Of a DNA stretch of 64,000 bases, positions 26,493-46,248 are shown in pieces; within the stretch, counting starts at the first letter, position 1, and each line of letters starts with the position of its first letter. Below the pieces are notes generated by a model. It searched no databases, was not told the origin of the DNA, and was given only the letters and a program-made list of their open reading frames with translations. A program made the translations under genes and the position numbers. Origin of the DNA: an uncultured Gemmatimonadota bacterium (GTDB lineage: Bacteria; JAAXHH01); assembly GCA_951812955.1 (NCBI GenBank), contig OX638340.1, forward strand, positions 3,360,001 through 3,424,000, read 5' to 3'.

Positions 26493-27464
26493 TCAGGGTA
26501 ACGCTTCACGATAGGGGGACAGATCGATCCCCGGGAAGGCATGCTCCAGCAGTCCGAGGGTCTGTGCCGTGTAGTAGGGATGACCGGGCTCGGGCCAGCC
26601 GAACAGCGACCGCACCCGAGGCGTCGTCCGCGTGATGAATGGCAGCATGTATTCCCGCTCTCCGTAGATGAAGGGATTCGAGAACCGGGTCCACCGGTCG
26701 GCGTCGCATCGGCACATGGACAGCGTCCACAAAGCCCGCTGTTTCTTCCGATTCTCAAAGGGTTGCGCCGAATGGAGCAGGTAGGAGGAATAGAAGAGCG
26801 CGCTTCCCCGCTTGCCCACGGCTGGGATCGGATCTTCCAGGCCGGCCTTGCGGATGTCCCGGACGTGACTTACGCCCGCCATGTTGCCGGATTCCCAACC
26901 ATCGGCGAATACCCCGGCCGCCCGCGTGTGCGAACCGGGAACGAGCAGCATGGGCGCACCGTCGTCGTCGACGTCATGGAGGTACACGCCGGAATTGACG
27001 TAAGAAAACCGTCCGGCGTCATCGGACGGCGGAAGTACGCAATTGGTGTTGTGATCGACGTGGTACCCGCTCCAAGGTTCGTCCGGATACCGCTCGTCCA
27101 CCGGCCCCGTGCGCATGAAGAGATGGGCGTTGCAGTAACTGGGCCTGTCGCCCAGGAACAATTCAAAAAGATCGAGATAACGGTCGTTCTCGATGAGCCG
27201 GTCCAGGCGCGGATCTCCCACGGGAAACTGGGACCGTCCCGCCACCTCGTCCTGCTTCGTGGTGAACCCGTCTCCCACGGATCCATGTTCGCCGCGTTCG
27301 AAGTCATCGAGCCAGGATGCGTACGACTTGCCGTAGAGATTCCCCTCCATGGCATCCAGTGCGGCGTCCATTTCCACGTCGCTGAAGACGTCCGGAACCA
27401 GGATGTAACCATCGCGTTGAAACTGTTCCAACATGGCGCTCCTCCGGGTGTCGTTGACGACCAT
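26493..27464 (-). CDS. Phytanoyl-CoA dioxygenase (PhyH)-family Fe(II)/2-oxoglutarate oxygenase
   Basis: PhyH N-terminus FQRDGYILVPDVFSDVEMDAALDAM. HxD...H facial triad context. Confidence 0.65.
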   Translation of the reverse strand: MVVNDTRRSAMLEQFQRDGYILVPDVFSDVEMDAALDAMEGNLYGKSYASWLDDFERGEHGSVGDGFTTKQDEVAGRSQFPVGDPRLDRLIENDRYLDLFELFLGDRPSYCNAHLFMRTGPVDERYPDEPWSGYHVDHNTNCVLPPSDDAGRFSYVNSGVYLHDVDDDGAPMLLVPGSHTRAAGVFADGWESGNMAGVSHVRDIRKAGLEDPIPAVGKRGSALFYSSYLLHSAQPFENRKKQRALWTLSMCRCDADRWTRFSNPFIYGEREYMLPFITRTTPRVRSLFGWPEPGHPYYTAQTLGLLEHAFPGIDLSPYREALP

Positions 27465-27469
27465 CGAGA

Positions 27470-28879
27470 TCAGTCGTTGCGTATCAGGTCATTCCACGGC
27501 GGCGAGATACCGTCCCGCCTGCGACGGGATACGTTCATTACGGGTCCGTCGGGGCGGACGCCATGACGCATGATCACGTCGAAATAGGGTTCCCGCGTGG
27601 CTTCCAGCAGTTTCAGCAGGCGCGTCCGCATGTCTCGCACTACATCAGGATGCGACTGGACCAGGCTGCGCATTTCATAGGGGTCTTCCCACAGGTCGAA
27701 GAGCAGTTCGTGCCCGGTCTCGTAGTAGGCGTACTTCCAGCGGTCCGTGGCCAGGCCGCGCCAGTCGGCATAGTCGAAATGCACCCGCGGCGCCCCCACC
27801 ATTTCGAGCAGGACCTCCCGAGGTCCGTCTAATTCCTCCCCCCTGCAGGCAGGGGAGAAATCGGTCCCCTGCATGTGTTCGGGTACGGGTACACCGGCCA
27901 GCCCCAGGGTCGTGGGTGCCATGTCGACCAGGCTGAAGAGGTCCGTTCGCCCGCCCTGGGCCTGCAGCAATCCGGGACCATGGAAGATCGCGGGAACCCG
28001 GGTGGACTCTTCATGGGGATGACCCTTGTCCTCCATCTGGTCGTGGCTTCCCATGAAGTCGCCGTGGTCGGAGAAATAAACGGTGACCGTGTTGTCCTGG
28101 AATCCGCCGATGCCCTCCACGGCGGCTAGCAGGCGGCCGATGTTCCAGTCCAGGTTCTCGACCATGGCGTAGTATGCCGCAAGCCGCTCGCGGAAATCGG
28201 GTTTGCCGCCGAAATTGGGGCGGGTCCGCAGGGACGCGGGATCGAACCGCATGTATGCATCCGGCGCTTCCAGTGGCCAGTGGGGCGGCTCCACGCTGAG
28301 GACGAGAAAGAGCGGGTGCTCCCTGTCGTATTCGGTCAGGTACCCGATGGCCATGTCGGTCAGCGCGTCGGTCTGGTAGCCCGGCATGCGCGTGGGATCG
28401 ATATCGTTTTCGCGGTAGTAGAATCCCTTGAAAGGCGCGTTGTTCATCTCGAAGCCGTACCAGTCCTGGAATCCGCCCCGGTGGAACTCCGGCGTGCGCG
28501 GCGCCGCTTCCACGCTGTAGTAGTCCGGATCGCGCCGCACTTCAGGGGGAATCTGGTCGCGGACCGTCCCGCAGTGCCACTTGCCGAAATAGGCGGTATG
28601 GTAGCCGCCCTCGCGAAGGATGGTGGCGGTACTCGGCGCAGCCGGCTTGTACACGTCGTGGAATCCCTGCACCGGTCCGGCGTGGGCGTGTCTGCCTGAG
28701 AATATGGTGCCACGGGAGGGTGTGCAGACCGGACAGTTTGCCCGGGCGCGTACAAAACTCATGCCTTCCACGGCCATGCGGTCCATGTTGGGGGTCCGCA
28801 GGTTTGGATCCCCGGCGTGACCCATGGCCTGTCCCGCGTGTTCGTCAGACAGGATGTAGAGTATATGCGGTCGGGGCAT
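27470..28879 (-). CDS. Sulfatase (formylglycine-dependent family) without a signal peptide
   Basis: Sulfatase signature CPVCTPSRGTIFSG (C-x-P-x-R). N-terminus MPRPHILYILSDEH has no hydrophobic leader. Confidence 0.8.
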   Translation of the reverse strand: MPRPHILYILSDEHAGQAMGHAGDPNLRTPNMDRMAVEGMSFVRARANCPVCTPSRGTIFSGRHAHAGPVQGFHDVYKPAAPSTATILREGGYHTAYFGKWHCGTVRDQIPPEVRRDPDYYSVEAAPRTPEFHRGGFQDWYGFEMNNAPFKGFYYRENDIDPTRMPGYQTDALTDMAIGYLTEYDREHPLFLVLSVEPPHWPLEAPDAYMRFDPASLRTRPNFGGKPDFRERLAAYYAMVENLDWNIGRLLAAVEGIGGFQDNTVTVYFSDHGDFMGSHDQMEDKGHPHEESTRVPAIFHGPGLLQAQGGRTDLFSLVDMAPTTLGLAGVPVPEHMQGTDFSPACRGEELDGPREVLLEMVGAPRVHFDYADWRGLATDRWKYAYYETGHELLFDLWEDPYEMRSLVQSHPDVVRDMRTRLLKLLEATREPYFDVIMRHGVRPDGPVMNVSRRRRDGISPPWNDLIRND

Positions 28880-28888
28880 GGTTCCGTT

Positions 28889-30277
28889 TCATTTCACGAC
28901 AGGCGAGTCGGCCGACTGGCGTTTTTTCCAGTAAAAATAGAAGGGCAGGCCCACGGCCAGGATCGCGAGTCCAAGCAGCGGCCGCGTAAAATCTGTAATG
29001 AGGGAGTTGGCCAGGACCCCGACGGCGATCAGGAGGAACAGGATCGGTGTTACCGGATACCCCCATACCCGGTATGGCCGGTGCAGGTCCGGTTCCTTCT
29101 TGCGTAAGATCATGAGACCGATCACAGCCAGTGTCAGGAACACGTAGGTGTAGAACATGGCGAAACTGACAATCTCGACGAAAGTGCCGGTCAGTGCGAA
29201 GACCGAAGCCCACAGTCCCTGCATTACAATGGATGCCACCGGGGTCCGGAACCGGGGATGGACGTACTGGCAGACCTTGAAGAAGATCTCGTGGTTGGCC
29301 ATGGCGTGGTAGACCCTGGGAGCTACCATCAACTGGGCGTTGACCGTACCGAATGTGGTCAGCATGATCGCCGCCGAAATGGCCATCGCCCCGGTGGGTC
29401 CTACCAGGGCCTGAAGCGTATCTGCGGCCGGCCGGCGGGACATTTGCAGTTCCTCGAAAGACAGGACGGTCAGGTACACGACATTGGCAAGGATATAGAC
29501 CGTGGCCACGATCGCCAGCGCGGCAAAAATCGCCCGGGGTATGCTCCGTGCCGGGTCCTTGATTTCGGTCGCGATGAACGTCACAAAAAACCACCCGTTG
29601 TAGGCGAACAGCGCCCCCAGGATCGCCAGGCTCAGACCGCCCAGGAGCGCGGTCCCGGTCTCTTCCTGAACAAGCGGGGTCCAGGAGACCTCCGTACCCG
29701 ATGCCAGGGTGAACCCGAGCAGGATGACGGCCAGGACGGCGCCGACCTTGATGAAGGCGAACACGTTTTGAACCGACCCGCCGATCTTGACGCCCAGGCA
29801 GTTGACCACCGTCAGGAAGAGGATGCATCCCACGGCCAGCAACCGTTCAGTCCAGAGGTCTTCGATGGCGAAGAGGCCGCCGGCGTACCGGGCGAAGACG
29901 GTGGCCACCGCGCCCATTGCGCCGGTAATGATGATGAAGAGAAAGGCCCACCCGAAGAGAAAGGCGATCAGGTCCGTGTTGTACGCCCGCCTGAGGAAGG
30001 CGTAGGTTCCCCCGCTCCTCGGTATGGCCGCGCCGAGTTCCGCGTAGCATAGCGCGCCTGCCAGGGCGAGCATGCCGCCGATAATCCACACGAACAGACT
30101 GAGCGAGGGCGAGCCGACCTGGGAGGCCACCGTGCTCGGTACCATGAAGATGCCCGAGCCGATAATCGCTCCGATGATCACCGCCGTACCCGTTTTCGCC
30201 GTCAACACGCGAAGCAGTCTGGGTTGACCAGCCGGCAATATCTCCTCTACGAGTTCGTCGTCATGGGTATGTGACAT
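28889..30277 (-). CDS. APC-family amino acid permease (12 TM)
   Basis: ...TGTAVIIGAIIGSGIFMVPSTVA...GGTYAFLRRAY. Typical APC fold. Confidence 0.75.
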   Translation of the reverse strand: MSHTHDDELVEEILPAGQPRLLRVLTAKTGTAVIIGAIIGSGIFMVPSTVASQVGSPSLSLFVWIIGGMLALAGALCYAELGAAIPRSGGTYAFLRRAYNTDLIAFLFGWAFLFIIITGAMGAVATVFARYAGGLFAIEDLWTERLLAVGCILFLTVVNCLGVKIGGSVQNVFAFIKVGAVLAVILLGFTLASGTEVSWTPLVQEETGTALLGGLSLAILGALFAYNGWFFVTFIATEIKDPARSIPRAIFAALAIVATVYILANVVYLTVLSFEELQMSRRPAADTLQALVGPTGAMAISAAIMLTTFGTVNAQLMVAPRVYHAMANHEIFFKVCQYVHPRFRTPVASIVMQGLWASVFALTGTFVEIVSFAMFYTYVFLTLAVIGLMILRKKEPDLHRPYRVWGYPVTPILFLLIAVGVLANSLITDFTRPLLGLAILAVGLPFYFYWKKRQSADSPVVK

Positions 30278-30340
30278 GAGGGCTCCTGTTGGTATGCAAT
30301 CTGGACGTTCTACAACCGGTCTGGATGTTCATCAACCGGT

Positions 30341-31336
30341 TCATTCCGGCGCGATGACCGGTGCGGCTTCCAGCTGTGAAGGAACGGGTTCGACTCCGTG
30401 AAAACGGGTGCCGTGCTCGAACCAGGACCGGGGGGCGGCCTGTCCCCACAGGGTCTGCCGCCGGGTGTCCTTCAGGTCCCATATCCGCGCGGGATGATCC
30501 GGGTCGACGGTGACGTAGTCTCCCGTGAACAGTTCGATCCGGTGTCCGTCCCGGTCGAAGAGGTACAGGAAGAAGGCGTTCGAGATGCCGTGGCGTCCCG
30601 GTCCCCGTTCGAAGGCGTCGCGGTGCTCCGAACTGGCCAGGCGGTCGCAGAAGTGGATGATGTCCATGGCCGTGGGCACGTAGACCCCGATGTGGTGCAG
30701 GCGGGGTCCGATGCCGTTCGTAAAGGCGATGTCGTGAACGCCGCCCCGGCGGTGCAGCCAGGTGGCCCACAGGTCCGAGTCCTCGTCCCCGATGTCCGCC
30801 ACCGTCACTTCAGTCGGCCGGAATCCCAGCGACTCAGCGTAGAAGGCCGTCATCCCGTTAACGTCATGGGAAAACAGGTTGAAATGGTCGATGCGCTGGA
30901 TGTGTGCGCCCCGGTATCGGCTGTACGCCTGCAGCAGGAGCTCCCGCCGTTCCATTTCGTGGTAGAACTCCAACGGAATGCCGTAGGGATCCTCCACGTG
31001 CAGCGTCCGGCCCTGGGCGTACCGTTCGACGAAAGCCGTCCGGCATCCGGCCGAGCCGTAGAATGCCTCCGCCCGGTCCAGGTCGGCTTCGCAGGCGACC
31101 TTGAAGGCGATGCGGTACACGACCGGTTCATCCGCCTTCGTCAGGATCAGCGAATGGTGGTTCCGTTCCTCCATGCCGCGGAGGTAGAGCGCGTCGCCCG
31201 TATCGTCCTCGCAGACATAACCCAGCAGGTCGACATAGAAGTCTCGCGCGTAGTCCAGGTCCGTTACGCCCCACTCCGCGTGGCTGGCGCGGATGATGTT
31301 GAAGGGCGGGGAATGATTCGCATTCGGAACGGCCAT
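30341..31336 (-). CDS. Two-domain VOC-superfamily extradiol ring-cleavage dioxygenase (3,4-dihydroxyphenylacetate/catechol 2,3-dioxygenase-like)
   Basis: Duplicated glyoxalase-like modules; ...HHIGVYVP...; size and order as in HPCD/MndD. Adjacent to the HpaE-like ALDH and the FAH hydratase. Confidence 0.65.
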   Translation of the reverse strand: MAVPNANHSPPFNIIRASHAEWGVTDLDYARDFYVDLLGYVCEDDTGDALYLRGMEERNHHSLILTKADEPVVYRIAFKVACEADLDRAEAFYGSAGCRTAFVERYAQGRTLHVEDPYGIPLEFYHEMERRELLLQAYSRYRGAHIQRIDHFNLFSHDVNGMTAFYAESLGFRPTEVTVADIGDEDSDLWATWLHRRGGVHDIAFTNGIGPRLHHIGVYVPTAMDIIHFCDRLASSEHRDAFERGPGRHGISNAFFLYLFDRDGHRIELFTGDYVTVDPDHPARIWDLKDTRRQTLWGQAAPRSWFEHGTRFHGVEPVPSQLEAAPVIAPE

Positions 31337-31384
31337 GGCCGACCTCTCGCTCGGATCTAACGCGGTATGGGATTCATGCGCGTG

Positions 31385-32920
31385 TCATCCCTTGCCTAGC
31401 TTCGGTACCGGGTGGCGCGCAAGGGCGATGTCGATATTCTTCGTTTCCATGTAGAAATCAAAACTGTAGTCGCCCCCGTCCCGCCCGATCCCGCTCGACT
31501 TCATGCCGCCGAAGGGCGTGGGGAGATGGCGCACGTTTTCGGAGTTCACCCAGACCATGCCGGCTTCGAGCCGCCGGGCAAAGTCATGGGCGCGGGTGAC
31601 GTCGCTCGTCCACAGGTAGGCGGCCAGGCCGTAATCGACGTCGTTGGCGATGTCCAGCGCTTCCGCTTCCGTGTCGAAGGGGATGGCGGTGAGAAAGGGC
31701 CCGAAAACCTCTTCACGGGCGATGCGCATGGACCGCTCGGCGTCACCGAAGAGCGTGGCCTCGAAATAGTTCCCGGAGCCGGCGTTCTCCGGGCATCCTC
31801 CACCGGCGATCAGCGTTGCGCCTTCTTCCTTTCCAGCGGACACGTAGCCTAGGACCTTCTCGAGGTGCAACGGGTGGATCAGGGGACCCAGTTCGGTGGC
31901 CGGGTCGAAGGGGTTTCCCAGGCGGATGCGCTTCACGCGCTCCGCGAGCCGGCCGGCGAAATCATCGTAGACCGTCCGCTCCACCAGCACGCGGCTGCCC
32001 GACGTGCACCGTTCCCCGTTCAGGCTGTAGATCATGAATACCGTGGCGTCCAGGGCCCGGTCCAGATCCGCGTCGGCGAAGACGACCACCGGGTTCTTGC
32101 CGCCCAGTTCGAAGTGCACCCGCTTGAGCGTATCCGCGCCCTGCCGCATGATGGCGCGGCCGGTCCGCGTGTCGCCCACGAATCCGACGGCCTTGATGTC
32201 CGGGTGCTCGGTGAGCGCCCGACCCGTGGTTTCGCCGATCCCGTTGACCACGTTGACCACACCCGCCGGCACGCCGGCCTCATGGACCAGTTCGGCCAGC
32301 CGCATGGCCGTGACCGGGCTCCACTCCGCAGGTTTGTGTACCACCGTGCAGCCGGCCGCCAGCGCGGGCGCCATCTTCCAGGTGCTGAGCATGAAGGGCG
32401 TGTTCCAGGGCGTGATGATGCCCACGGGCCCGATGGGCTGCCTCAGGGTGTAGTTCAGGTGCCCGGCCGTTGGAAGCGCGAGCCCGTCCGATGCGCTCTC
32501 GGCGCGGTCCGCGAAGAACCGGAAGTTCTCGGCGGCGCGCGACGCGGCCTTGGACATGAAACGGATAGGCTGGCCCGTATCATAGGTTTCCAGCAGGGCG
32601 ATCTCTTCGCCGTGTTCCTCGATCAGGTCGGCGACCCGGTGCAGCAGCCGTTTTCGTTCCGTCCCCGGGGTGTCCCGCCAGTCTTCGAAAGCCTCCGTTG
32701 CCGCACGGGCCGCGGTGTCGATCACCTCCGGTCCACCGTTCGCGACGGTGCACAGGAAGGAATTGTCGACCGGCGTGGCGTTCTCTAAGGATGCGCCTCC
32801 TGCGGCTGGGACGGAGGAACCGCCGATGAGATGGCCGATGCCCTGTTCGCGGAACCGGGCGATGTGCCGCTCCGCTTTCGCCTGGTTCGGATGATTCGCC
32901 GTGGCCTGGATTGCTATGAT
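31385..32920 (-). CDS. 5-carboxymethyl-2-hydroxymuconate-semialdehyde dehydrogenase-like ALDH (HpaE-like); start codon unresolved (no in-frame ATG/GTG/TTG near the conserved N-terminus)
   Basis: Alignable end-to-end with E. coli HpaE (ours ...ARHPVPKLGKG vs HpaE ...DHPIPKWGV; catalytic ...FELGGKNP..., ...GERCTSGSR...). Conserved N-terminus ...IGHLIGGSSV begins about 32860. Strong SD AAGGAGG lies at 32931-32925. Confidence 0.75.
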   Translation of the reverse strand: MIAIQATANHPNQAKAERHIARFREQGIGHLIGGSSVPAAGGASLENATPVDNSFLCTVANGGPEVIDTAARAATEAFEDWRDTPGTERKRLLHRVADLIEEHGEEIALLETYDTGQPIRFMSKAASRAAENFRFFADRAESASDGLALPTAGHLNYTLRQPIGPVGIITPWNTPFMLSTWKMAPALAAGCTVVHKPAEWSPVTAMRLAELVHEAGVPAGVVNVVNGIGETTGRALTEHPDIKAVGFVGDTRTGRAIMRQGADTLKRVHFELGGKNPVVVFADADLDRALDATVFMIYSLNGERCTSGSRVLVERTVYDDFAGRLAERVKRIRLGNPFDPATELGPLIHPLHLEKVLGYVSAGKEEGATLIAGGGCPENAGSGNYFEATLFGDAERSMRIAREEVFGPFLTAIPFDTEAEALDIANDVDYGLAAYLWTSDVTRAHDFARRLEAGMVWVNSENVRHLPTPFGGMKSSGIGRDGGDYSFDFYMETKNIDIALARHPVPKLGKG

Positions 32921-33669
32921 GCATCCTCCTTCAGACCGTCCACCACGTCGTTTTGCAGTGCGCCCAGGCCGTCCACCTCCAGCCGGAGCCGGTCCCCCGC
33001 GTGGATGTGGGAAATGCCCTCCGGCGTACCCGACCAGATCATGTCCCCTGGGCTCAGGGTCATGTACGCGGTGATGTACTCGATGAGTTCGGCCACGCTG
33101 TGGCGCAGGTCGCCCGACCAGCCCTCCTGGCGGAGTTCGCCGTTGACGTAAGTACGCAGGTGAACGTCCGTGGGATCGATTTCGTCCGCGGTGGTCAGGA
33201 AGGGACCCAGGGGACCGAAGGTGTCGAAACCCTTGGCCTTGATCGGCGGCCTGAAATAGTTGCTCACGAAGTCCCGTATCGTCAGGTCGTTTCCAATGGT
33301 GTAACCGCCCACGTAGTCCAGGGCGTACTCGGCCTTTACCTTGCGCGCCGGACGGCCGATCACGGCGACAAGTTCGCATTCGTAGTGCAGGTAATCGAAC
33401 TCAGGCGGGACGACGATCTTCGCACGGTGTCCGATGAAGGTCTGGGGCATCTTGTTGAACAGGATGGGCTCTTCGGGCAGGTCCAGGTTCAGTTCCTTCG
33501 CGTGCTCCGTGTATCCCAGCGCGACCCCGATGGCTTTGCTCGTATGGTCCACCGGAGGCAGGAACATGACGTCCTCCGGATCGTAAGCGACCGTGCCCAC
33601 CATGAGCTGTCCGTCTTCGTACACGGCCTCGAGTACCTGGCCGTTACAGGCGAACCGTGCAGTCTTCAT
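32914..33669 (-). CDS. Fumarylacetoacetate hydrolase (FAH)-family protein, HpaG/HpcE-like hydratase/decarboxylase
   Basis: FAH motifs ...HYECELVAVIGR...GYTIGNDLTIRD...GDMIWSGTPEG.... Confidence 0.75.
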   Translation of the reverse strand: MKTARFACNGQVLEAVYEDGQLMVGTVAYDPEDVMFLPPVDHTSKAIGVALGYTEHAKELNLDLPEEPILFNKMPQTFIGHRAKIVVPPEFDYLHYECELVAVIGRPARKVKAEYALDYVGGYTIGNDLTIRDFVSNYFRPPIKAKGFDTFGPLGPFLTTADEIDPTDVHLRTYVNGELRQEGWSGDLRHSVAELIEYITAYMTLSPGDMIWSGTPEGISHIHAGDRLRLEVDGLGALQNDVVDGLKEDAS

Positions 33670-38029: not shown

Positions 38030-38179
38030 GTTCGGCGGGACCTCACTGGATTCGAACGAAGGGATTGGGTCCGGGGAACTACATGCGCATGAGTCTGAAA
38101 CAATCAACTAAAGAAAACGGCCCGGAGAAGGCCGGTCAAGGAGTATGTCCCGGCCAGCCACCGCCGCGAATGCCGGACG

Positions 38180-39229
38180 CTACAACTGGTTGAGCAGCAT
38201 CAGTTCGCCGGGAAAGGGATGGAGGTAGGTCTGGTCTTTCAAGTAGGCGATGTCGAATTCGCGGACGTAGTGCCGCAGCATGACGACCGGGACGATCAGC
38301 GGGAGCAATTCCTCCCGGTAATTCTGAATCATGCGGGTCAGTTCCCGCCGGGTACGGCTGTCGAGCCGGTCGGAAACGTAGCCCGCCATGTGTTGCAACA
38401 CGTTGGTGTGGTTCCGCCGTGACGGGGTTCGTTTCATGACCGAGTTGAATTCGTCCAGGTAGGCATTCGCCAGGGCCTGGGTGGTCGCAAATCGTTCCGG
38501 TTTCGCCAGCAGCCGGCCGAGGCGGCGGGTGCCCTCCTGGCTGTGGGCCATGAGCAAGTACTTGTAGGCCCGGTGATATCCCATCAGCGATTCCCTGGTC
38601 AGGCCCGTAGTGACCAGTTGCAGCCAGCGGTAATAGGCGAACACCCGGCTGATGAAGTTCTCCCGGATCCTGAGGTTGTGCAACCGCTGCTCTTCTTCCA
38701 CCGGCAGATGGGGGAGGACTTCCATCAACCGGCGGGCGAATATGCCCCGCCCTTTTTTAAGTGTGGCGCCATCGGGCTGGACGACGGGTACGCGCTCCTT
38801 GCCGCAGGAGGGGGATCGGCTTTTCAGGATGTATCCGCTGAGCCTGGCCTGCTCCAGGGTCTGAACACGCTGCCGGGCGAACCAGTCCACCACGTCCGTG
38901 TGGTCGACGCCCGCCTTGGTCAGCATCCGGATGTCGCCGTCGACCCGCGTCAGCTGCACCGTCTCCCGCGGCATGCCCATGCCCGCCTCCACTTCCGGAC
39001 ATACCGGGACCCACTCCACGTACCGGCCGACCACGTCCACCAGGTAGTCGTCCCGTTTGTGCCCGCCGTCGTAGCGGACTCTCTCGCCGAGCAGGCAGGA
39101 GGAGATACCGATGCGCACGGGCAATTCGGCCCGGTGAATATCCAGCAGGGGTATTTCGCTCGAGGAAGTCCCGCCAAATACCGATTCGCTCATGATTCGT
39201 CCATTATGCTCTTCGCATTGCGGTTTCAC
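38180..39229 (-). CDS. DUF523 (TudS-like [4Fe-4S] thiouracil desulfidase fold) fused to a DUF1722 (YbgA-like) domain
   Basis: DUF523 N-domain with conserved Cys (ISSCLLGERVRYDGG...VPVCPEVEAGMGMPRE...SPSCG). C-terminal ~190 aa has YbgA-like helical character. Confidence 0.5.
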   Translation of the reverse strand: MKPQCEEHNGRIMSESVFGGTSSSEIPLLDIHRAELPVRIGISSCLLGERVRYDGGHKRDDYLVDVVGRYVEWVPVCPEVEAGMGMPRETVQLTRVDGDIRMLTKAGVDHTDVVDWFARQRVQTLEQARLSGYILKSRSPSCGKERVPVVQPDGATLKKGRGIFARRLMEVLPHLPVEEEQRLHNLRIRENFISRVFAYYRWLQLVTTGLTRESLMGYHRAYKYLLMAHSQEGTRRLGRLLAKPERFATTQALANAYLDEFNSVMKRTPSRRNHTNVLQHMAGYVSDRLDSRTRRELTRMIQNYREELLPLIVPVVMLRHYVREFDIAYLKDQTYLHPFPGELMLLNQL

Positions 39230-39243
39230 TCATGATGCGCTCG

Positions 39244-39990
39244 CTACCATCGGTCGATGGCTCCGAGAAGCAGTTTCTGTTCCTTCGTTCCCTTTTCCCG
39301 TATGGCCGTCACCCGGGGTCCGTCGAAGGGTTCCCTGGACTTCATCCAGGCGTTCTGGTAGCACATGAGGCAGACACGGCGGTTCCGTTCCGACTGGTTG
39401 GCGGCCCCGCGGTGAAACAGCCAGCCGTCGAACAGGACGGCCTGTCCCGGCCTGGCCAGCACGTGTTTTTCATCGGGGAACCGGGCATGCGTCTCCGGCG
39501 GCTTGAAGGGCGCCCTGTGGCTGCCAGGCACGATGACGATAGGACCGTTCTCCATGGTCAGCTGGTCCAGGTAATATCCGCAGTTGACCTGTCCCGGCTC
39601 GTTGCCGTAAGGCGGCGGTTCCGGGTCTTTGGGCCAGGGAATGTCCCGGTGCCAGTTCTGGTCCGGCTCCCCGGGTTTAGTCACCCGCGCCGTCGCGCTG
39701 TGCAACTGCACGCAATTGCCCAGGATGGCCTTCATACGGTCCAGGACGGGCGGGTTGTCGAGGAGGAAGGCGAACCGGTCGTCTTCCTCAAGGAGTTGGT
39801 GCGTGAAGGACTCGCCGCGCCGCTGGTAGGTCTCGTCCAGGGCGTCCCGGAGCTGTTCGACCTGCGGGACGGTCAACGCGTCCTCCACCACGAGATAGCC
39901 CCACTTCCTGAAGAAGGCGGCTTCCCGTTCCAGTTCCGGCGTCAGGTCCGGATTCATCCGCGGACCGACGATTTCGGCGTCATATCCCAT
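39244..39990 (-). CDS. PhyH-family Fe(II)/2OG dioxygenase
   Basis: ...KWGYLVVEDALTVPQV...NWHRDIPW...VPGSHR.... Confidence 0.6.
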   Translation of the reverse strand: MGYDAEIVGPRMNPDLTPELEREAAFFRKWGYLVVEDALTVPQVEQLRDALDETYQRRGESFTHQLLEEDDRFAFLLDNPPVLDRMKAILGNCVQLHSATARVTKPGEPDQNWHRDIPWPKDPEPPPYGNEPGQVNCGYYLDQLTMENGPIVIVPGSHRAPFKPPETHARFPDEKHVLARPGQAVLFDGWLFHRGAANQSERNRRVCLMCYQNAWMKSREPFDGPRVTAIREKGTKEQKLLLGAIDRW

Positions 39991-40064: not shown

Positions 40065-41189
40065 TCAGAAGAAGCCGAGGTCTTCCCGGGCCGCCCGACG
40101 GGCCGTCTCCTCGTCCAGCGTCACACCCAGGCCCGGCTTCATGGGCAGGTCGATGTGCCCGTTCCGGATCAGGTCTCTTTCCACCGTCAGCGTATTCCAA
40201 ACTTCGTTGTCCAGGTGATGGAATTCGAGCACCTGGAAGTTGGGCACCGCCGCGCACAGGTGACACACGGCCACCGTGCCGATGGGTCCACAGATGTTGT
40301 GGGGCGACAGGGGGATGTAGTACATGTCCGCCAGGTCGGCGATTTTCCGGCCCTCGAGCAGTCCACCCGCCTTGGCGTGATCGGGCGAGATGATGTCCGC
40401 CGCCTGCGCCTCGATGAGGTCCCGGAATCCGTGGCGCGTGTAGAAGTTCTCCCCGGTGCAGATGGGGACGCGGGTAGCCTGGGTCACTTTCGCCATGGCC
40501 TCGATGTTCTCCGGCGGCACGGGATCCTCCAGCCACATCAGGTCCAGGTCCTCGCAGGCGTAAGCCACCTTGAGTATGTCCACCGGGGCGTAATTCCAGT
40601 GGGCGTCGATGAGCAGGTCGGTATTGGGGTTCAGCGAATCCCGAAGTGCGGTGATGACGTCAATGAAGAAGGCCACGTCGTCGTTGCTGATGGTCCGGTT
40701 GTACCGGTCCCGCCGGTTCGGCCGCGGATCGATGTCGAACTTGATGGCGTCGAAGCCGCGTGCTTCAACGGCCCGGGCTTTCTCCACATAGGCTTCCGGC
40801 GTCTCGTCATCCCCTGCGTGGCAGTCGTTGTAAACGCGGATGCGGTCCCTGAACTTGCCGCCGAGCAGTTGCCAGATGGGCACGCCGCAGGCCTGTCCCG
40901 TGATGTCCCACAGGGCCATTTCAATCCCGCTGATGGCGCTCATGACCGCGCCCTGGTAGAAACCGGACGCCGACATGGAAGACATCATGTCGTGGAAGAG
41001 CTTGTCCACGTTCCGCGGGTCCTGGCCGATGAGCGCCCGGTCCCGCAGCCTCGGGTCGGTGACGATCTGGTGGACCCCGGCGCCGTGATAGGCTTCGCCG
41101 ATGCCGACCAGCCCCTCGTCGGTTTTGACTTTTACCAGTACCCAGGGCATGGGCTGGAGCAGCACGGCCCCCACGTGTGTGATTTTCAT
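40065..41189 (-). CDS. Enolase-superfamily enzyme, mandelate racemase/muconate lactonising (MR/MLE) family (start ATG at 41189 with a GGAG SD)
   Basis: MKITHVGAVLLQ...VKVKTDEGLVGIGEA. MR_MLE N and C domains. Metal ligands D...E...D. Confidence 0.8.
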   Translation of the reverse strand: MKITHVGAVLLQPMPWVLVKVKTDEGLVGIGEAYHGAGVHQIVTDPRLRDRALIGQDPRNVDKLFHDMMSSMSASGFYQGAVMSAISGIEMALWDITGQACGVPIWQLLGGKFRDRIRVYNDCHAGDDETPEAYVEKARAVEARGFDAIKFDIDPRPNRRDRYNRTISNDDVAFFIDVITALRDSLNPNTDLLIDAHWNYAPVDILKVAYACEDLDLMWLEDPVPPENIEAMAKVTQATRVPICTGENFYTRHGFRDLIEAQAADIISPDHAKAGGLLEGRKIADLADMYYIPLSPHNICGPIGTVAVCHLCAAVPNFQVLEFHHLDNEVWNTLTVERDLIRNGHIDLPMKPGLGVTLDEETARRAAREDLGFF

Positions 41190-41327
41190 TTGGACTCCAT
41201 GACTGCCTGACTGCCGGACAATGGGTTCCCACGCTTCGCCCGCCCGATCCTCAAAGGTGCGAACGCGGTACACTAAAGACGCAAGCGCGGTACACTACAG
41301 CACGAGCGCGGTACATTCAGTAACCGA

Positions 41328-41939
41328 TCATTGCATCCTGGTCAGCGCGTCCCGGGCATTGAGATAGGGTACGGATCGCTCCAGGAACGTTTCAACCAGG
41401 TGACCGGGCGTGAGTTCGGAAGTATCGATGTCGAACTTTCGTTTGATCCAGGACTGCGCGACTTCCTCTTCGAACCGTTCCAGGACGTGCGGCACGTCCT
41501 CCGATGGAACCAACTGGCGTGGATGGGGATCCTGCTCCATGCGCCGCCGGATCACCTCGGGACGTGCGTGAAGATGGACCAGGATCGCGTCGCCGGGCAT
41601 GTCCGGTTCGTACTCACGCACCGCGATATTGATCCCCGGATAATAGTAACAGGGACCGTACACCATCTCCTCGATATGGAACCCGCCCAGGAGGATGTGG
41701 TCGAACTTGTGCATCAGCCGGACGTGGTACACGATCTGGAACCGCTGAAACCGTTCCTTTATGGCCGGCAGCATGTCGATGAAGCCCTGCTGCTCCTCCT
41801 CGTCGAGGTGGTAGGCGTCCGGGATGGTGAAGTGGTCGTCCAGGTGGTGATGAACGCCCCGCTCGTTCCCCCAGTTGTAGAGGCCGTCGATCAGCGTCGT
41901 GACCCCCGAGTATTCGCAGCCTGCGGCGATCAACCGCAT
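41328..41939 (-). CDS. Hypothetical protein with a degenerate P-loop-like N-terminus (AAGCEYSGVTTL); possibly a sulfotransferase/kinase fold
   Basis: ORF between two MR/MLE genes. The glycine-rich loop lacks the Walker A lysine. No firm family assignment. Confidence 0.35.
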   Translation of the reverse strand: MRLIAAGCEYSGVTTLIDGLYNWGNERGVHHHLDDHFTIPDAYHLDEEEQQGFIDMLPAIKERFQRFQIVYHVRLMHKFDHILLGGFHIEEMVYGPCYYYPGINIAVREYEPDMPGDAILVHLHARPEVIRRRMEQDPHPRQLVPSEDVPHVLERFEEEVAQSWIKRKFDIDTSELTPGHLVETFLERSVPYLNARDALTRMQ

Positions 41940-41970
41940 GGACGCTCCTTTCGTCGATATCGGAATGGTT

Positions 41971-43089
41971 TCAATCCAGTTCCTCGTAAGCCTGCGTATA
42001 CCGCTGCAGCGCGTCGTAATCCAGGTCGCAACCCAGTCCCGGCTTCATTGGCGTGGGCACGTGGCCGTCGACAAAGGTAATGGGTTCGAGGATCAGGTCG
42101 TCCTCCCGGGTCCACCCGCCGACGAAATCGGACGCCATGGTGCAGTTCGGCGCCGCGGCCGCGGCATGGACGAAGGAGGTGTCCGAAATCCCCAGGTCGT
42201 TTCCCGATCCGTGCCAGCACGGGAGTCCGGCCGAGGCGGCCGTGGCGGCATTGCGCTGGAAGCCGAACATGCTGCCACCCAGGTTTACGCAATCCACCAC
42301 GCCCCGGCCCCCGTCGGCCTGCAGGGCGCGGACCACGCCCGGCCCGTCTCCCAGGTGCATGGCCAGGGGGAAAGGGATGGCCCCGTGGATCTCTTCGTAA
42401 CCCTCGATATCGGACTTGGGTATGGGGTCCTCGAACACCTCCACGTTTCCCAGCGGTTCGAGGCGCCCCGCCAGTTCGATGGTCTGCGCGGCGGTGTAGA
42501 ACCGTTCGTTGGGGTCCACGGTCACCTTGAATCCGGGCCCCGCCACGTCGCGCATGGCCTTCAGGCGCTCGTACATGGGTTCCTCGAGCCGGCACTTGAT
42601 CTTGACCCCCGTAAACCCTTGCCGCATCCCTCGTTCCACGGCCCTGGCGCCGTCCTCCGGCGTCTGGTGGCCCATCCAGTAATCGGCGCGGACACGGTCG
42701 CGGACGGCGCCTCCGAGCAACGCATGCACGGGCAGTTCGCGGACCCGTCCCACGAGGTCCAGCACGGCCATCTCGAAGGCGTCGTACGCCGGACCGGTAC
42801 CTACCGTGATGTCGTCGGCCGCCCTTTCGGCCCGCCGTCCGAAGATATCCTGCGGGGCCACGTCCTCGGGGTCGCGGCCGATCAGCAGCGCCGCGCCTTC
42901 CCTGACCTCCTCGATGGGTACGCCGCGCCAGGTCTCCCCGATGCCCGAGAACTCGGTGTCCGTATCGACACGGATGATGTGCTTCGGGACCTCGTCCCAG
43001 CCGGCCTTCGCAGCGTATTCAGGGCTGTGGACGCGGCCCGGTATGGTGGGTACGACGACGGTCCAGACTGCAACGGATGTGATCTTCAT
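41971..43089 (-). CDS. Enolase-superfamily enzyme, MR/MLE family (second copy)
   Basis: MKITSVAVWTV...IRVDTDTEFSGIGET. MR_MLE architecture. Confidence 0.8.
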   Translation of the reverse strand: MKITSVAVWTVVVPTIPGRVHSPEYAAKAGWDEVPKHIIRVDTDTEFSGIGETWRGVPIEEVREGAALLIGRDPEDVAPQDIFGRRAERAADDITVGTGPAYDAFEMAVLDLVGRVRELPVHALLGGAVRDRVRADYWMGHQTPEDGARAVERGMRQGFTGVKIKCRLEEPMYERLKAMRDVAGPGFKVTVDPNERFYTAAQTIELAGRLEPLGNVEVFEDPIPKSDIEGYEEIHGAIPFPLAMHLGDGPGVVRALQADGGRGVVDCVNLGGSMFGFQRNAATAASAGLPCWHGSGNDLGISDTSFVHAAAAAPNCTMASDFVGGWTREDDLILEPITFVDGHVPTPMKPGLGCDLDYDALQRYTQAYEELD

Positions 43090-43122
43090 CCAGGACTCCC
43101 TGTTTGGGGCGAAAACGTCGCT

Positions 43123-44316
43123 TCAGTTGTTCCGCCACCCTGCGATAAAAGTGTCCACATTCAGGCAGGACGGCATTTCCTCGAAGTAGTAGTGCATGGG
43201 GTCCGACTGAAACCCTGGCACGTACTGTACGGTTTCTGATTGCACCATGCCGTCGAGTGGGGCGAAGCGCTGCCAGAGGGTGTCCAGTTCGCCGTCGGCA
43301 AACCGGGGTTTCAGGTCCTCGTCGTGCGATATGTCGCTGCCGTAGTGCGGCCGGACGGGATGTGCGGAGAACTTCATCTTGTAGACAATCTTGGACAGGA
43401 GCACGACGCACACGATACGCCCGATCTCGCCGGGGTGCAGCGCGGCAAGGCCTTCCTGGAAAGCGTCCTCGTCCCGGCCGATGACGGCGCGGAAAATGGA
43501 CTCTATCAGGTCTGACTCCTCGTCATACCTGCGCTTGACGTCCTCGAAAACGGCCTGCAGATCGGAGGGCAGGCATTCGGTGAAGGAGAGATCCCTGAAG
43601 GTGCGGTTGACGTAGGGGAAGATCGGACCGCCGTAGGACCGGTAGCCCAGGTGGATGGTGCGCCTCATCCGGGCGCTGTAATTGCTCCCCCAGTGCAGGA
43701 TCGTATTGGTATAGACCACCCCGTCGCCCGCATTCAACTCGACCTGGACGGCGCCGGGCAGTACCTCGCGGGGATTCCGTCCCAGGCAGCGGTTCTCTTC
43801 GGCCGTGTTCCCCCGTTGATGACTCTTCGGCACGACCCAGAGCACGTTGTCATCGTAGAGCGGGATGTTCCACTGGAGATAACCGGGGGCGTTGTGCAGC
43901 AGGTCATCCTGCAGGCCCCTGAGCGGCGCCTGGTCGATGGGATGTATGTCCCGGTGCCACGCCGCCGGACCGTGGTCTTCCACCGGGTTGCACATGAAGA
44001 AGAAACCGGTGTTTCCCGCGGCTTTCGCGTTCATGATGCGCCGGCTGACCCCCATGGTATGCTCGTGCAGGCCGAAGGCCATGGTATTGGCCGTGTCCTC
44101 GTCCACGAGGGATTCGAAGTTCAGCCGGGGCTGGGAACTGACCGCCCACTGGCCTCCGGGCGGATCGTCCGGTTTCCTTTCCCTGGCCCAGATTTCCTTC
44201 TGACGATCCACCATGCGCTCGAAGCTGTCCCTTAACGGGTCTAGCCAGTCAGGGGGAACCACCCCACGAAGCACGATGAAACCGTCTTCGAACAGTTTCC
44301 GAGGATCGAAATTCAT
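43123..44316 (-). CDS. PhyH-family Fe(II)/2OG dioxygenase (long form, 397 aa)
   Basis: ...FEDGFIVLRGVVPPDWL...AWHRDIHP... Confidence 0.6.
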   Translation of the reverse strand: MNFDPRKLFEDGFIVLRGVVPPDWLDPLRDSFERMVDRQKEIWARERKPDDPPGGQWAVSSQPRLNFESLVDEDTANTMAFGLHEHTMGVSRRIMNAKAAGNTGFFFMCNPVEDHGPAAWHRDIHPIDQAPLRGLQDDLLHNAPGYLQWNIPLYDDNVLWVVPKSHQRGNTAEENRCLGRNPREVLPGAVQVELNAGDGVVYTNTILHWGSNYSARMRRTIHLGYRSYGGPIFPYVNRTFRDLSFTECLPSDLQAVFEDVKRRYDEESDLIESIFRAVIGRDEDAFQEGLAALHPGEIGRIVCVVLLSKIVYKMKFSAHPVRPHYGSDISHDEDLKPRFADGELDTLWQRFAPLDGMVQSETVQYVPGFQSDPMHYYFEEMPSCLNVDTFIAGWRNN

Positions 44317-44593
44317 GTAAGGTTTACCGCAAAAAGATGCGACGCGGGACGATGCCCGCGCCGTAGAACAGGGTTAACGTTCAATCTACATCGGCCCATG
44401 GGAATGTCAAGAGTGGGAAGACACAAATTGCGTCTTTGTTTGACTCTGAGCCGGCACCGCCCTGAGACTGCCGCGTGGACGGGTATTTCGTCTTGCAGGA
44501 AGCCCGCCGCGAAATTAGATTACGGTCCTGTAATTCAATAAACCCTGGTCCGGTTCGTTTCCACGAATACCGGTTTTCTTCCTTGTCGACGGA

Positions 44594-45205
44594 GTGCTCA
44601 TGGCGGTCCAGAAAGACTGGTGCCGGTTTGTCCTGCTGCTCATCGACGTCCAGCGGGATTTCTGGCCGGAGGAGACGGCCGAGTCTTTCCCCGATTTCCC
44701 GTCGAACGTCGAACGGCTGCTCGAATATTGCCGCGTTTCCGGTCTCGACGTCGTCCACGTGCGTGCGGATTTCGAACCGGACGGATCGGACTGGATGACG
44801 CCCTATCGGATTAAGGGGGAAACACCCTGCATACGCGGCACGCGGGGTGTGGAGGTGCTGCCCTGCGCCATGGAAATGGACGGCGAACCCGTCCTGCGCA
44901 AGCGGACCTTCGACGCCTTCCTTCAGCCGGACCTATTATCCCGTTTACATCGTGCGCGTAAATCCTATATACTGATTGCGGGACTTGAGACCTCCGTCTG
45001 CGTGCTTCTTACCGCTGCTTCCGCCGTACAGCACGGGTTCCTGGCCGCGGTCGTCGCGGACTGCTGCGCCGACGATCCCGCCAGGCACGAGGCGGTGGTA
45101 AACGGATATCCCTTCATGTTTGACCGCACTACCCTCGCCAGGCTCGAAACCGACCACGACCGCTGGATGGACATGCTGAACAAGCTGCAGCATGCCGGAG
45201 GATGA
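44594..45205 (+). CDS. Isochorismatase-family cysteine hydrolase
   Basis: ...[10 protein letters not shown]...[16 protein letters not shown]... (catalytic D-K-C arrangement). Confidence 0.7.
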
Positions 45206-46248
45206 CCGTGAACCATTTGAATGTAGGGATCGTCGGCCTCGGCTGGGTGGCCGGGGCGCACATCGACGCCTTCAAGGCCGTGACCGGGGCCGACGTTACC
45301 GCCGTATGCTCCCGGAGGAACCATGACGACGCGGAACTTTCCGCGCAGTTCGGCACGCCGCTGAAGTCCTGTGTCGATTATGGCGATCTGCTCGCCGATC
45401 CCGACGTCCACGTGGTCGACATCTGCACGCCCCACCCCTTCCACGCCGACCAGGCCGTGGCCGCCGCGGAGGCCGGCAAGCATCTCATCATCGAGAAGCC
45501 CATTGCCCTGACTCCCACGGACGCCGTGCGCATCCAGTCCGCCGTCGAGAAGGCCGGGGTGTGTGTCTGCGTCTGTTTCGAATGCCGGTACAGCGCGCAC
45601 TTCACCATGATCCGGTCCGTCATCGACCAGGGGCTGCTCGGTGATCTACACTACGCCGAAGTCGACTACTACCATGGCATTGGTCCCTGGTACGGGCAGT
45701 ACGGCTGGAACGTGAAAAAGGACATGGGCGGGTCCAGCCTGCTGACGGCGGGGTGCCACGCCCTGGACGCCCTTCTGTTCTTCATGGACGGCAAGGTGGA
45801 GGAAGTCACCAGCTACAGCACGAAGTCCTCCAGCCCCCACTTCGCGCCGTACGAGTACGATACCACGAGTGTTTCCATCCTGAGATTCGAGGGCGGCAAG
45901 CGGATCGGCAAGGTGACCTCCAGCATCGACTGTCTGCAGCCCTACTATTTCCACGTGCACCTGGTAGGTAGCGAAGGAAGCCTGCTGGACAATCGGTTCT
46001 ATTCGCATAAGCTCGATGGTCTGGACCGCAGCCGTTGGAGCACGCTCGAGACCTCCCTGATCGATTCGGGCGACGTCCAGGATCACCCTTACGAACCCCA
46101 GTTCCAGGCCTTCGTCGACAGTATCAACGGAGGCGGACCCATGCCGCTCACGGACATGCATACCGCCTACGAGTCGCACCGCGTCGTCTTCGCGGCCGAC
46201 CGTTCAGCTGCGGAGGGCCGGTCTGTGCGCCTGGACGAGGTGGACTAG
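45202..46248 (+). CDS. Gfo/Idh/MocA-family NAD(P)-dependent oxidoreductase
   Basis: Rossmann N-terminus [16 protein letters not shown]...EKPIAL. ATGA start/stop overlap with the isochorismatase gene. Confidence 0.8.

Follow-up and report, generated by a model that had tools for sequence, protein, structure and literature searches.

Four divergent PhyH dioxygenases in a conserved and probably modular catabolic gene block of an uncultured bacterium

A run of catabolic genes on contig OX638340.1 of an uncultured Gemmatimonadota bacterium brings together four Fe(II)/2-oxoglutarate (2OG) dioxygenases of the PhyH family, two MR/MLE enzymes, a sulfatase and enzymes of aromatic ring cleavage, and raises the question of whether these genes serve one new pathway or several. 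The original prediction, made on the window (the whole stretch of 64,000 nucleotides analysed here), saw in it a combination of hydroxylation, desulfation, dehydration and ring cleavage. On balance, we regard the region as a lineage-specific catabolic super-operon of separable modules and not as one new pathway. One coherent pathway made of these steps is not supported: more distant genomes carry sub-blocks of the run on their own, and the homoprotocatechuate and kynurenine modules are classical routes. As the original prediction had supposed, no described pathway combining these families was found in the literature searched, nor any described kernel made of a 203-aa protein gene, an MR/MLE gene (MR/MLE-1) and a PhyH gene. 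The enzyme families themselves are known, as are two of the modules.

Genes were called from a frame-specific map of GC content at third codon positions (GC3) and a list of open reading frames (ORFs), and the 64-kb window was then scanned with Pfam and NCBIfam, which confirmed the position and the family-level identity of every gene listed originally. Sixteen minus-strand genes run from PhyH-4 to PhyH-1 (44316 to 26493) with intergenic gaps that are all 74 nt or less. Two of them, encoding P-loop proteins of 203 aa (41328-41939) and 289 aa (33682-34551), had been missed in an otherwise correct list. The edge originally placed at 26493 had to be moved, because genes of a kynurenine/3-hydroxyanthranilate block (19788-26251) continue on the same strand to 19788, separated from PhyH-1 by a gap of 241 nt. 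On the other side, genes for an isochorismatase-family hydrolase (44594-45205) and a Gfo/Idh/MocA oxidoreductase (GFO, 45202-46248) lie on the plus strand, divergent from PhyH-4. The whole catabolic block covers 19788-46248, about 26 kb with 24 genes, between housekeeping genes on the left (Ppk, TonB receptor, Pst/PhoU, Dus, porin) and on the right (Ser/Thr kinase with a PD40 propeller, PRTase, heptosyltransferases, RlmN). Four PhyH among 17 genes would be unlikely by chance, with P ~2.5e-4 even if the highest per-gene frequency published, 1.9% in Poribacteria (PMC3909097), is assumed. A horizontally acquired "island", the word chosen in the original prediction, was rejected because GC content is even across the window and no tRNA, integrase or transposase gene was found in it (tRNA scan and Pfam scans).

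Evidence on how these genes belong together comes from their conservation pattern. Neighbourhood searches were anchored on PhyH-3 (80 genome loci), PhyH-1 (70 metagenome loci) and the 203-aa protein (6 loci), with all window proteins scored; the relatives' loci found in this way carry labels such as L001, L079 and L112. The closest records (93-99% identity per protein) are metagenome-assembled genomes (MAGs) and complete chromosomes of 3.7-3.9 Mb, labelled Candidatus Latescibacterota, "uncultured Gemmatimonadota" or "bacterium". One window protein is 100% identical to that of a gene on a 3.81-Mb contig, and the metagenome contig MKWU01001448.1 (40.7 kb) shows 95-100% identity over 15 genes. 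The host is an uncultured marine or sponge-associated bacterium. The entire order from the Ser/Thr kinase to 3-hydroxyanthranilate 3,4-dioxygenase (3-HAO) is kept in L001, L004-L014, L084 and L088, at a mean amino-acid identity of 85-97%. It is essentially kept in L019 (82%), where the isochorismatase and GFO genes are absent, and in L016 and L090 (72-74%), which have no GFO or kinase and on the left side only kynureninase, KMO and 3-HAO; the block thus survives where the flanks have changed. The co-localisation in relatives, whose lack the original prediction had named as speaking against itself, is therefore conserved.

At greater distance (~70-78%), the loci L079, L080 and L015 keep PhyH4-MR2-203aa-MR1-PhyH3, PhyH-2, a 2-hydroxyacid dehydrogenase (2HADH), the isochorismatase and GFO. 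PhyH-2 and 2HADH form an adjacent pair in L015 and are both present in L079, where GFO is kept at 76% identity and the isochorismatase stays with the core. The Hpa genes, the thiamine-diphosphate (TPP) enzyme, the 289-aa protein and DUF523 are missing from these three loci; in their place stand an amidohydrolase, an NTP-transferase, a metallophosphoesterase, a further PhyH, an M81/MlrC peptidase, a class-III aminotransferase and an amino-acid-binding protein, and L079 alone has an HpcH/HpaI aldolase as well. In L158/L159, from a pelagic Gemmatimonadetes MAG, a UxuA-like gene, the 203-aa gene, an orthologue of MR/MLE-1 and a PhyH are followed by two SGSH_C sulfatases and GFO. The order in L112, L085 and L086 (PhyH-1 identity 66%) is 289aa-HpaG-HpaE-HpaD-IDO-permease-sulfatase-PhyH1.

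The separable parts can be assigned to four modules, for which we infer all substrates, the direction in which each step runs, and co-transcription. Module C, the core, would consist of PhyH4-MR2-203aa-MR1-PhyH3, the PhyH2-2HADH pair and the divergent isochorismatase and GFO genes, and judging from sequence resemblance it probably degrades a decorated (sulfated or O-methylated) sugar or sugar acid. The Gfo-type dehydrogenase would oxidise the sugar and the two MR/MLE enzymes would dehydrate the resulting acid sugars, while the PhyH enzymes would oxidatively remove substituents (e.g. O-methyl, the group that PHYHD1/FJS takes off 2'-O-methylribose) or introduce hydroxyl groups at C-H bonds, and 2HADH would take the 2-keto or 2-hydroxy acid products. 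In module S, an L-type-like permease, the cytoplasmic sulfatase and PhyH-1 would import and desulfate a small sulfate ester. Module H, formed by the 289-aa protein with HpaG, HpaE and HpaD, would represent the upper homoprotocatechuate meta-cleavage route, and module K (kynureninase, KMO, 3-HAO, ACMSD, ALDH and RidA) the breakdown of tryptophan via 3-hydroxyanthranilate. The TPP enzyme and the DUF523/DUF1722 protein are additions limited to the close lineage. Modules H and K are known aromatic ring-cleavage routes, both incomplete in the window. As for the two substrates that had been guessed, a sulfated aromatic and a sulfated sugar acid, each is a candidate that fits a different module.

The decorated sugar is suggested first of all by GFO and both MR/MLE enzymes, which resemble sugar dehydrogenases and acid-sugar dehydratases. 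GFO is of the sugar/inositol dehydrogenase type by its Pfam matches, with IolG as top NCBIfam family (130 bits, below cut-off). MR/MLE-1 (40065-41273, minus strand) is galactonate-dehydratase-like (MR_MLE_C, 216 bits) and likely has its true start near 41189, giving 374 aa and matching the lengths of its orthologues; MR/MLE-2 (41971-43089, minus strand) is like glucarate dehydratases and N-acylamino-acid racemases (MR_MLE_C, 119 bits). Both carry N- and C-terminal MR_MLE domains in Pfam, and they are 26% identical to each other. The top NCBIfam family is GalD for MR/MLE-1, at 258 bits under a cut-off of 311, and for MR/MLE-2 the best score of 73 bits is far under the cut-off of 335, so neither enzyme reaches a characterised MR/MLE equivalog in NCBIfam. 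The nearest structure to MR/MLE-1 is 2QQ6 (function unknown; E 4e-90), followed by galactonate and mannonate dehydratases, and those nearest to MR/MLE-2 are 3VDG, 3VC5 and 4IT1, "probable glucarate dehydratases" of unknown function, and N-acylamino-acid racemases. The sugar reading also draws on the relatives, which add a UxuA-like gene, an HpcH/HpaI aldolase and cytoplasmic sulfatases, and on the neighbourhood of PhyH-3 homologues, which stand beside carbohydrate-linked genes: in a Poribacteria locus beside MR/MLE, GFO, BNR, SASA and polysaccharide-deacetylase genes (identified by Pfam), and in Caldilineaceae after ABC-transporter permease and solute-binding genes that were judged to be of sugar type by eye. 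A sugar-type substrate is further indicated by the sulfatase, which is nearest to carbohydrate sulfatases. Lastly, the PDB neighbours of PhyH-2, PhyH-3 and PhyH-4 include SnoK/SnoN, KanJ and EvdO1, enzymes that act on sugar moieties, and PHYHD1, for which such action is reported in PMC12709175.

Several observations weigh against this reading. The decorated sugar rests on distant resemblance, and none of the PhyH or MR/MLE sequences reaches a curated equivalog. The permease is of amino-acid and not of sugar type, and the amino-acid-binding protein, M81 peptidase, aminotransferase and amidohydrolase of L079/L015 would fit amino-acid- or peptide-like substrates equally well. Outside the lineage, the association of PhyH, MR/MLE and GFO is loose: MR/MLE genes occur in 3/66 PhyH-3-anchored and 9/26 PhyH-1-anchored loci of at least 8 kb, GFO in 14/66 and 6/26, and a second PhyH in 16/66 and 12/26, counts which are descriptive only and carry no genomic background rate. 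TPP-like ORFs were seen in 2/26 PhyH-1-anchored and 0/66 PhyH-3-anchored loci of this set, and HpaD, the permease, the 289-aa protein, DUF523 and the isochorismatase-like gene in none of the 66 or the 26. As to separability, the entire order is kept down to ~72% identity with changed flanks, so that the modules could work together, and modules S and H were seen apart from the core in L112 only up to the contig end at the 289-aa gene. Within the window, no HpaF, HpaH, HpaI, 4-hydroxyphenylacetate (4-HPA) hydroxylase, TDO/IDO or formamidase gene was found that would complete modules H and K.

The PhyH enzymes are far from uniform. PhyH-4 (43123-44316, 397 aa, PF05721 at 47.7 bits) is the first gene of the run, with a PhyH domain at residues 10-219 and a C-terminal remainder of ~170 aa that has no family assignment. 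PhyH-3 (39244-39990, 248 aa) scores 82.4 bits, PhyH-2 (37235-38107; probable ATG start near 38029) 105.6 bits, and PhyH-1 (26493-27464), which starts 5 nt after the sulfatase gene, 50.3 bits, against a PF05721 gathering score of 22; all four are on the minus strand. The original prediction called them paralogous, which is right at the level of the PF05721 superfamily; as recent paralogues they were rejected, since pairwise identity is 25% or less (some pairs are undetectable by BLASTP), which makes them four subfamilies. The HxD motif is present in all four (H135VD in PhyH-1, H137QD in PhyH-2, H114RD in PhyH-3 and H121RD in PhyH-4). The PhyH-1 family keeps H135-V-D137, H231 and R243 invariant and the PhyH-3 family H114-R-D116, H193 and R204, and the distal His/Arg were located by eye in PhyH-2 (TVHGS...RSRLAF) and PhyH-4 (ILHWGS...MRRTIH). 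No NCBIfam equivalog cut-off is reached by any of them: PhyH-1, PhyH-3 and PhyH-4 have no match at all, and PhyH-2 scores 41 bits for EctD (cut-off 336) and 36 bits for a chlorinating enzyme (cut-off 226). In the PDB, E-values are never better than 5e-15, the value for PhyH-2 with PHYHD1 (2OPW) over ~108 residues (71-178), followed by SnoK/SnoN and EctD. PhyH-3 is closest to the leucine hydroxylase GriE (E 2e-7), then to EctD and KanJ, the sole sequence match of PhyH-4 is EvdO1 (E 0.003), and PhyH-1 matches an unnamed 2OG oxygenase. By NCBIfam cut-offs and PDB comparison, then, no PhyH or MR/MLE belongs to a characterised subfamily, which supports the original prediction.

PhyH-1 homologues are widespread in marine candidate phyla. 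The PhyH-3 subfamily is 70-75% identical across MAGs of Poribacteria, Caldilineaceae, Spirochaetia, Trueperaceae, Latescibacterota and Gemmatimonadota (L017-L078), with 99 residues invariant in 14 sequences, and many of the MAGs that carry it apparently derive from sponge metagenomes. This cross-phylum identity reflects either unusually strong conservation or lateral spread. In other phyla the contexts of PhyH-3 homologues are heterogeneous (peptidase-like, ABC-transporter and membrane-protein genes), and none of the cluster genes was found beside them, the neighbours having been read by eye.

The textbook roles of the family can be set aside on the same data. Classical phytol/phytanoyl-CoA alpha-oxidation, ectoine hydroxylation and PhnY/PhnZ phosphonate oxidation were rejected, although the family name might point to them, as might the TPP enzyme and ALDH, which alpha-oxidation also uses: the partner genes are absent from the window (no acyl-CoA ligase, beta-oxidation genes or PhnZ-type HD-phosphohydrolase), equivalog scores are far under cut-off (41 against 336 bits for EctD), and all four enzymes stand far from the solved members, PHYH and EctD included. 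We give these roles next to no credence.

A different role is offered by PHYHD1/FJS and related PF05721 proteins, which demethylate free 2'-O-methylnucleosides and whose active members include plant, viral and Poribacteria proteins (PMC12709175, Stonkus et al. 2025). PhyH-2 shares 29% identity with the active enzyme of N. tabacum, 26% with that of Fadolivirus and 24% with that of Poribacteria, and PhyH-1, PhyH-3 and PhyH-4 are much further from this group. The core could accordingly be read as salvage of modified nucleosides from RNA turnover, with PhyH-2 as 2'-O-methylnucleoside demethylase, the DUF523/DUF1722 protein as thio-base desulfurase, the 203-aa protein as nucleoside kinase and the isochorismatase-family protein (PF00857, 103 bits) as nucleobase or nicotinamide amidase. 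The closeness of PhyH-2 to PHYHD1 and to the plant demethylase, the activity of a Poribacteria PhyH protein and the adjacent gene with a TudS-type DUF523 domain would suit it. That gene (38180-39229, minus strand) encodes a fusion of DUF523, the domain of TudS-type 2-thiouracil desulfurases (PF04463, 135.9 bits; gathering score 34.7), and DUF1722 (PF08349, 129.5 bits; gathering score 22.5); it is limited to the close lineage, other genes occupying its position in L079 and L015, and its absence from the more distant core copies speaks against salvage.

The 203-aa protein bears on the same idea from both sides. It lies on the minus strand and has no Pfam match, and its AlphaFold2 (AF2) model (pLDDT 86) has YorR (3KB2), deoxyadenosine kinase and thymidylate kinases as Foldseek neighbours (E 1e-7 to 1e-5), so the predicted fold is that of a (deoxy)nucleoside or NMP kinase. 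Its 594 homologues come mostly from marine Latescibacterota and Gemmatimonadota, and one is named "NadR/Ttd14 AAA"; fold and name speak for salvage. The Walker A motif is nevertheless degenerate (GCEYSGVT): G7, G12 and V13 are invariant, with Val in place of the Walker A Lys in 35/35 aligned homologues, which speaks against salvage. Adding that the PhyH-2 match to PHYHD1 covers only ~108 residues, and that two MR/MLE enzymes, GFO and three further PhyH have no place in salvage, we consider this explanation very improbable.

A second route has been considered for the genes that follow PhyH-2. Peroxisomal alpha-oxidation uses PHYH, the TPP lyase HACL1 and then an ALDH, and by the same logic PhyH-2, 2HADH, the TPP enzyme and an ALDH could together shorten a carboxylic acid by one carbon independently of CoA: after hydroxylation at C-alpha, the 2-keto acid would be formed by oxidation and decarboxylated to give the aldehyde, which would then be oxidised to the acid, and arylpropionates would yield (dihydroxy)phenylacetate for HpaD. 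Gene order agrees with this order of reactions. The D-isomer-specific 2HADH (36254-37225, minus strand; 2-Hacid_dh_C, 185 bits; top NCBIfam glyoxylate reductase, 191 bits under a cut-off of 455) begins 9 nt after the end of PhyH-2 and overlaps by 4 nt with the TPP gene (34578-36257, minus strand), the 289-aa gene and HpaGED come next, and PhyH-2 and 2HADH are adjacent in L015 and both present in L079. The TPP gene, however, is absent from L079 and L015, where PhyH-2 and 2HADH persist, which weakens the idea. Moreover, the TPP enzyme belongs to the uncharacterised PRK08266 subfamily (NF006122, 733 bits, above 571), which is closest to acetolactate synthases; its PDB neighbours are acetolactate synthases, glyoxylate carboligase, oxalyl-CoA decarboxylase and benzaldehyde lyase. 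PhyH-2, in turn, is nearest to an O-demethylase of 2'-O-methylnucleosides and not to a C-alpha hydroxylase (PMC12709175). One-carbon shortening is, for these genes, decidedly unlikely. Outside the cluster, at 55822-57513 on the minus strand, the window holds a second TPP-dependent enzyme; it has 563 aa and the full set of three TPP domains and adjoins a PHO4 phosphate transporter and a DUF4340/ABC-2 system.

Module S raises the question of the substrate again. The sulfatase (27470-28879, minus strand; PF00884, 150 bits; SGSH_C domain) has its Pfam domain from residue 4, the motif CTPSR at residues 52-56 and at most 4 open codons upstream, which makes it a Cys-type formylglycine sulfatase that has no signal peptide and would be cytoplasmic, as had been proposed originally. 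No identical entry was found by exact-sequence look-up. Its nearest PDB structures are all carbohydrate sulfatases: YidJ-like 2QZU, S1_30A, a CS/DS 4-O-endosulfatase and a GlcNAc-6-sulfatase. Among the ORFs of the 64-kb window there is no member of the FGE-sulfatase or anSME families, the only radical-SAM protein being RlmN-like. The APC-superfamily permease (28889-30277, minus strand; AA_permease_2, 198 bits) is closest to L-type (large neutral) amino-acid transporters (TIGR00911, 298 bits), then to FrlA and BcaP, all below cut-off.

A rival reading is one pathway for a sulfated aromatic amino-acid derivative (e.g. tyrosine-O-sulfate, DOPA or hydroxy-tryptophan sulfate). The permease would import it, the sulfatase would free the phenol, and PhyH, 2HADH, the TPP enzyme and ALDH would convert the side chain to homoprotocatechuate; alternatively the kynurenine route would lead to 3-hydroxyanthranilate, the ring being cleaved afterwards. 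Apart from the type of permease, this pathway is favoured by the position of permease-sulfatase-PhyH1 between HpaGED and the kynurenine genes in three sublineages, with IDO inserted in L085/L112, and by the entire order being kept to ~72% identity. As the triad always lies between aromatic amino-acid genes in these sublineages, a sulfated aromatic amino acid such as tyrosine-O-sulfate is a live alternative for module S. Several points speak against the pathway as a whole: the sulfatase is nearest to carbohydrate and not to aryl or tyrosine sulfatases, the window has neither an aminotransferase nor a 4-HPA 3-hydroxylase, the PhyH/MR/MLE core occurs free of aromatic genes in L079, L080, L015 and L158, and the pathway would leave MR/MLE dehydratases without a function. 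We therefore regard it as unlikely and keep to separable modules.

Module H is recognisable at equivalog level. On the minus strand, HpaD (3,4-dihydroxyphenylacetate 2,3-dioxygenase, 30341-31336) scores 381 bits for TIGR02295 (cut-off 321), HpaE (5-carboxymethyl-2-hydroxymuconate semialdehyde dehydrogenase, 31385 to ~32920) 757 bits for TIGR02299 (cut-off 638), and the HpaG-C-type isomerase/decarboxylase of the FAH family (32914-33669) a marginal 282.4 bits for TIGR02303 (cut-off 276.4). HpaF, HpaH, HpaI and 4-HPA 3-hydroxylase were not found in the window. The similarity of the HpaE frame to its family reaches the HpaG stop, and no ATG, GTG or TTG occurs in it from 32725 to beyond 33100; a start at 32725 would cost ~38 conserved N-terminal residues. 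A strong AAGGAGG (32930-32924, minus strand) is followed by in-frame ATC ATA, and the arrangement AAGGAGG..ATCATAG/A is kept in all close relatives (L001, L004-L019, L084, L088), which hints that HpaE translation begins at a non-canonical codon or by re-initiation when HpaG terminates. The gene that precedes HpaG in every locus examined encodes the 289-aa protein (minus strand), a P-loop NTPase/kinase with the Walker A motif GLPGTGKS. The unnamed family to which it belongs is small, 1.84 billion sequences yielding 271 clusters at 50% identity. The model of the protein is very confident (pLDDT 95.5), and only the P-loop kinase core of ~150 residues resembles PDB structures. An identity as APS kinase was rejected, as the weak profile match is limited to the P-loop and fold searches recover only the core.

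In module K, all on the minus strand, kynureninase (23903-25195; TIGR01814, 459 bits, above 246) and 3-HAO (19788-20348; NF009763, 265 bits, above 220) reach their equivalogs. The KMO-like FAD monooxygenase (22498-23955; top NCBIfam VioC, 232 bits, cut-off 760) and the ALDH (20791-22329; top NCBIfam 562 bits, cut-off 693) are assigned by Pfam, and the ACMSD-like protein (Amidohydro_2, 25199-26251) and the RidA-family protein (20329-20790) by Pfam only. TDO/IDO and formamidase genes are absent from the window. The kynurenine block is syntenic in L084, L088 and L089 and partly so in L090, where only kynureninase, KMO and 3-HAO (11255-14587) follow PhyH-1 and ACMSD, ALDH and RidA are missing; by its gene content this set is predicted to be that of the tryptophan-to-quinolinate (NAD) route rather than of full catabolism. 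L085/L086 (2642-3892; 9014-10501) have an IDO gene (PF01231) between HpaD and the permease, and an NRPS-like condensation/PP-binding protein and a thioesterase after PhyH-1.

With regard to expression, a promoter upstream of PhyH-4 probably serves all 16 genes down to PhyH-1, the kynurenine genes forming a second unit. Promoter-like sites are found upstream of PhyH-4 and inside the 241-nt gap; the best sigma-70-like match, TTGACA-16-TAGATT (44383-44410, minus strand), is located 67 nt before the start codon of PhyH-4 and is a match at consensus level only; promoters of the host phylum may differ. Terminator-like sites are no commoner than in shuffled sequence. None of the 24 block genes encodes a recognisable transcription factor, and the only regulatory candidate nearby is the Ser/Thr kinase with a PD40 beta-propeller (46280-49087), which most close relatives keep next to the block and which directly abuts PhyH-4 in L019. 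Elsewhere in the window (5793-11897), a TonB-dependent receptor with CarboxypepD_reg comes before a 1045-aa protein that carries a Por_Secre_tail (T9SS sorting) domain, a pair consistent with an FCB-group organism.

Should the modules be merely juxtaposed operons, the region would be a catabolic cluster of the ordinary kind in an uncultured heterotroph. A core that acts on decorated sugars would bring an oxygen-dependent "de-decoration" step into the turnover of marine glycans and dissolved organic matter (DOM). Going further, the 203aa-MR/MLE-PhyH kernel with further PhyH, cytoplasmic SGSH_C-type sulfatases and GFO may tentatively be seen as an undescribed oxidative route that takes O-methyl or other decorations off marine sugars before dehydration, a possibility that we hold to be rather unlikely as it stands. 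In either case the locus offers small conserved units for expression and screening (203aa-MR1-PhyH3, PhyH2-2HADH and permease-sulfatase-PhyH1) and two additional unnamed P-loop families, that of the 289-aa protein combining a very confident model with the absence of a close solved relative.

Compared with known systems, module H resembles the hpa/hpc cluster of E. coli W/C and Klebsiella in its adjacent HpaD, HpaE and HpaG-C-type genes, all above equivalog cut-offs. It differs in that HpaBC and an HpaR/HpaA regulator are missing from the window along with HpaF, HpaH and HpaI, that HpaG is a single FAH domain and not a two-domain fusion, and that the trio stands after a novel P-loop protein inside a 16-gene run with unrelated enzymes. 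The bacterial kynurenine/3-hydroxyanthranilate/2-aminomuconate pathway is of the nbaC-F type, and a tryptophan-to-quinolinate variant lacks ACMSD. Module K shares with this pathway the kynureninase and 3-HAO equivalogs and the contiguous KMO-like, ACMSD-like, ALDH and RidA-type genes; unlike it, TDO/IDO or formamidase do not occur in the window and the downstream 4-oxalocrotonate enzymes were not identified. The parallel with peroxisomal alpha-oxidation lies in the order PhyH-2, 2HADH, TPP enzyme with a nearby ALDH, which could give one-carbon shortening. A dehydrogenase step is interposed here, however, CoA-handling genes are absent from the window, and the TPP enzyme resembles acetolactate synthases more than it does oxalyl-CoA decarboxylase/HACL.

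In non-phosphorylative sugar-acid routes, such as those for L-fuconate, L-rhamnonate and D-galactonate, a sugar dehydrogenase works together with an MR/MLE-type dehydratase; carrageenan and agar catabolism offers a further example in its 3,6-anhydrogalactonate cycloisomerases. The Gfo-type dehydrogenase, the two MR/MLE enzymes near acid-sugar dehydratases, 2HADH and an FAH-family protein have their like in these routes, as do the HpcH/HpaI aldolase, UxuA-like protein and sulfatases that relatives add. On the other hand, the MR/MLE enzymes are below equivalog cut-offs, the window has no lactonase, KDG-type kinase or aldolase, and the three or four PhyH are without counterpart in any such pathway. 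For PhyH-2 itself, the PHYHD1/FJS demethylases (PMC12709175) are the nearest known system, PHYHD1 being the closest solved structure, identity to the plant and viral members 26-29% and the HxD...H motif shared, although the identity is low and the PDB match short. The last comparison is with the Poribacteria, in which PhyH is the most abundant Pfam family (1.9% per gene) and almost all members have no assigned function, only PhnY-like ones having been given one (PMC3909097, Kamke et al. 2014). That study reported no fixed context, whereas here four divergent PhyH subfamilies are placed in a conserved operon context with MR/MLE, GFO and a sulfatase, which bears on the PhyH expansion of sponge symbionts. 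In both systems a sponge-associated or marine heterotroph carries several PF05721 genes that are divergent and uncharacterised, and the PhyH-3 subfamily itself is shared at 70-75% identity; the oxidative route considered above would, if true, be the first functional explanation of the PhyH expansions in sponge symbionts and in marine Latescibacterota and Gemmatimonadota.

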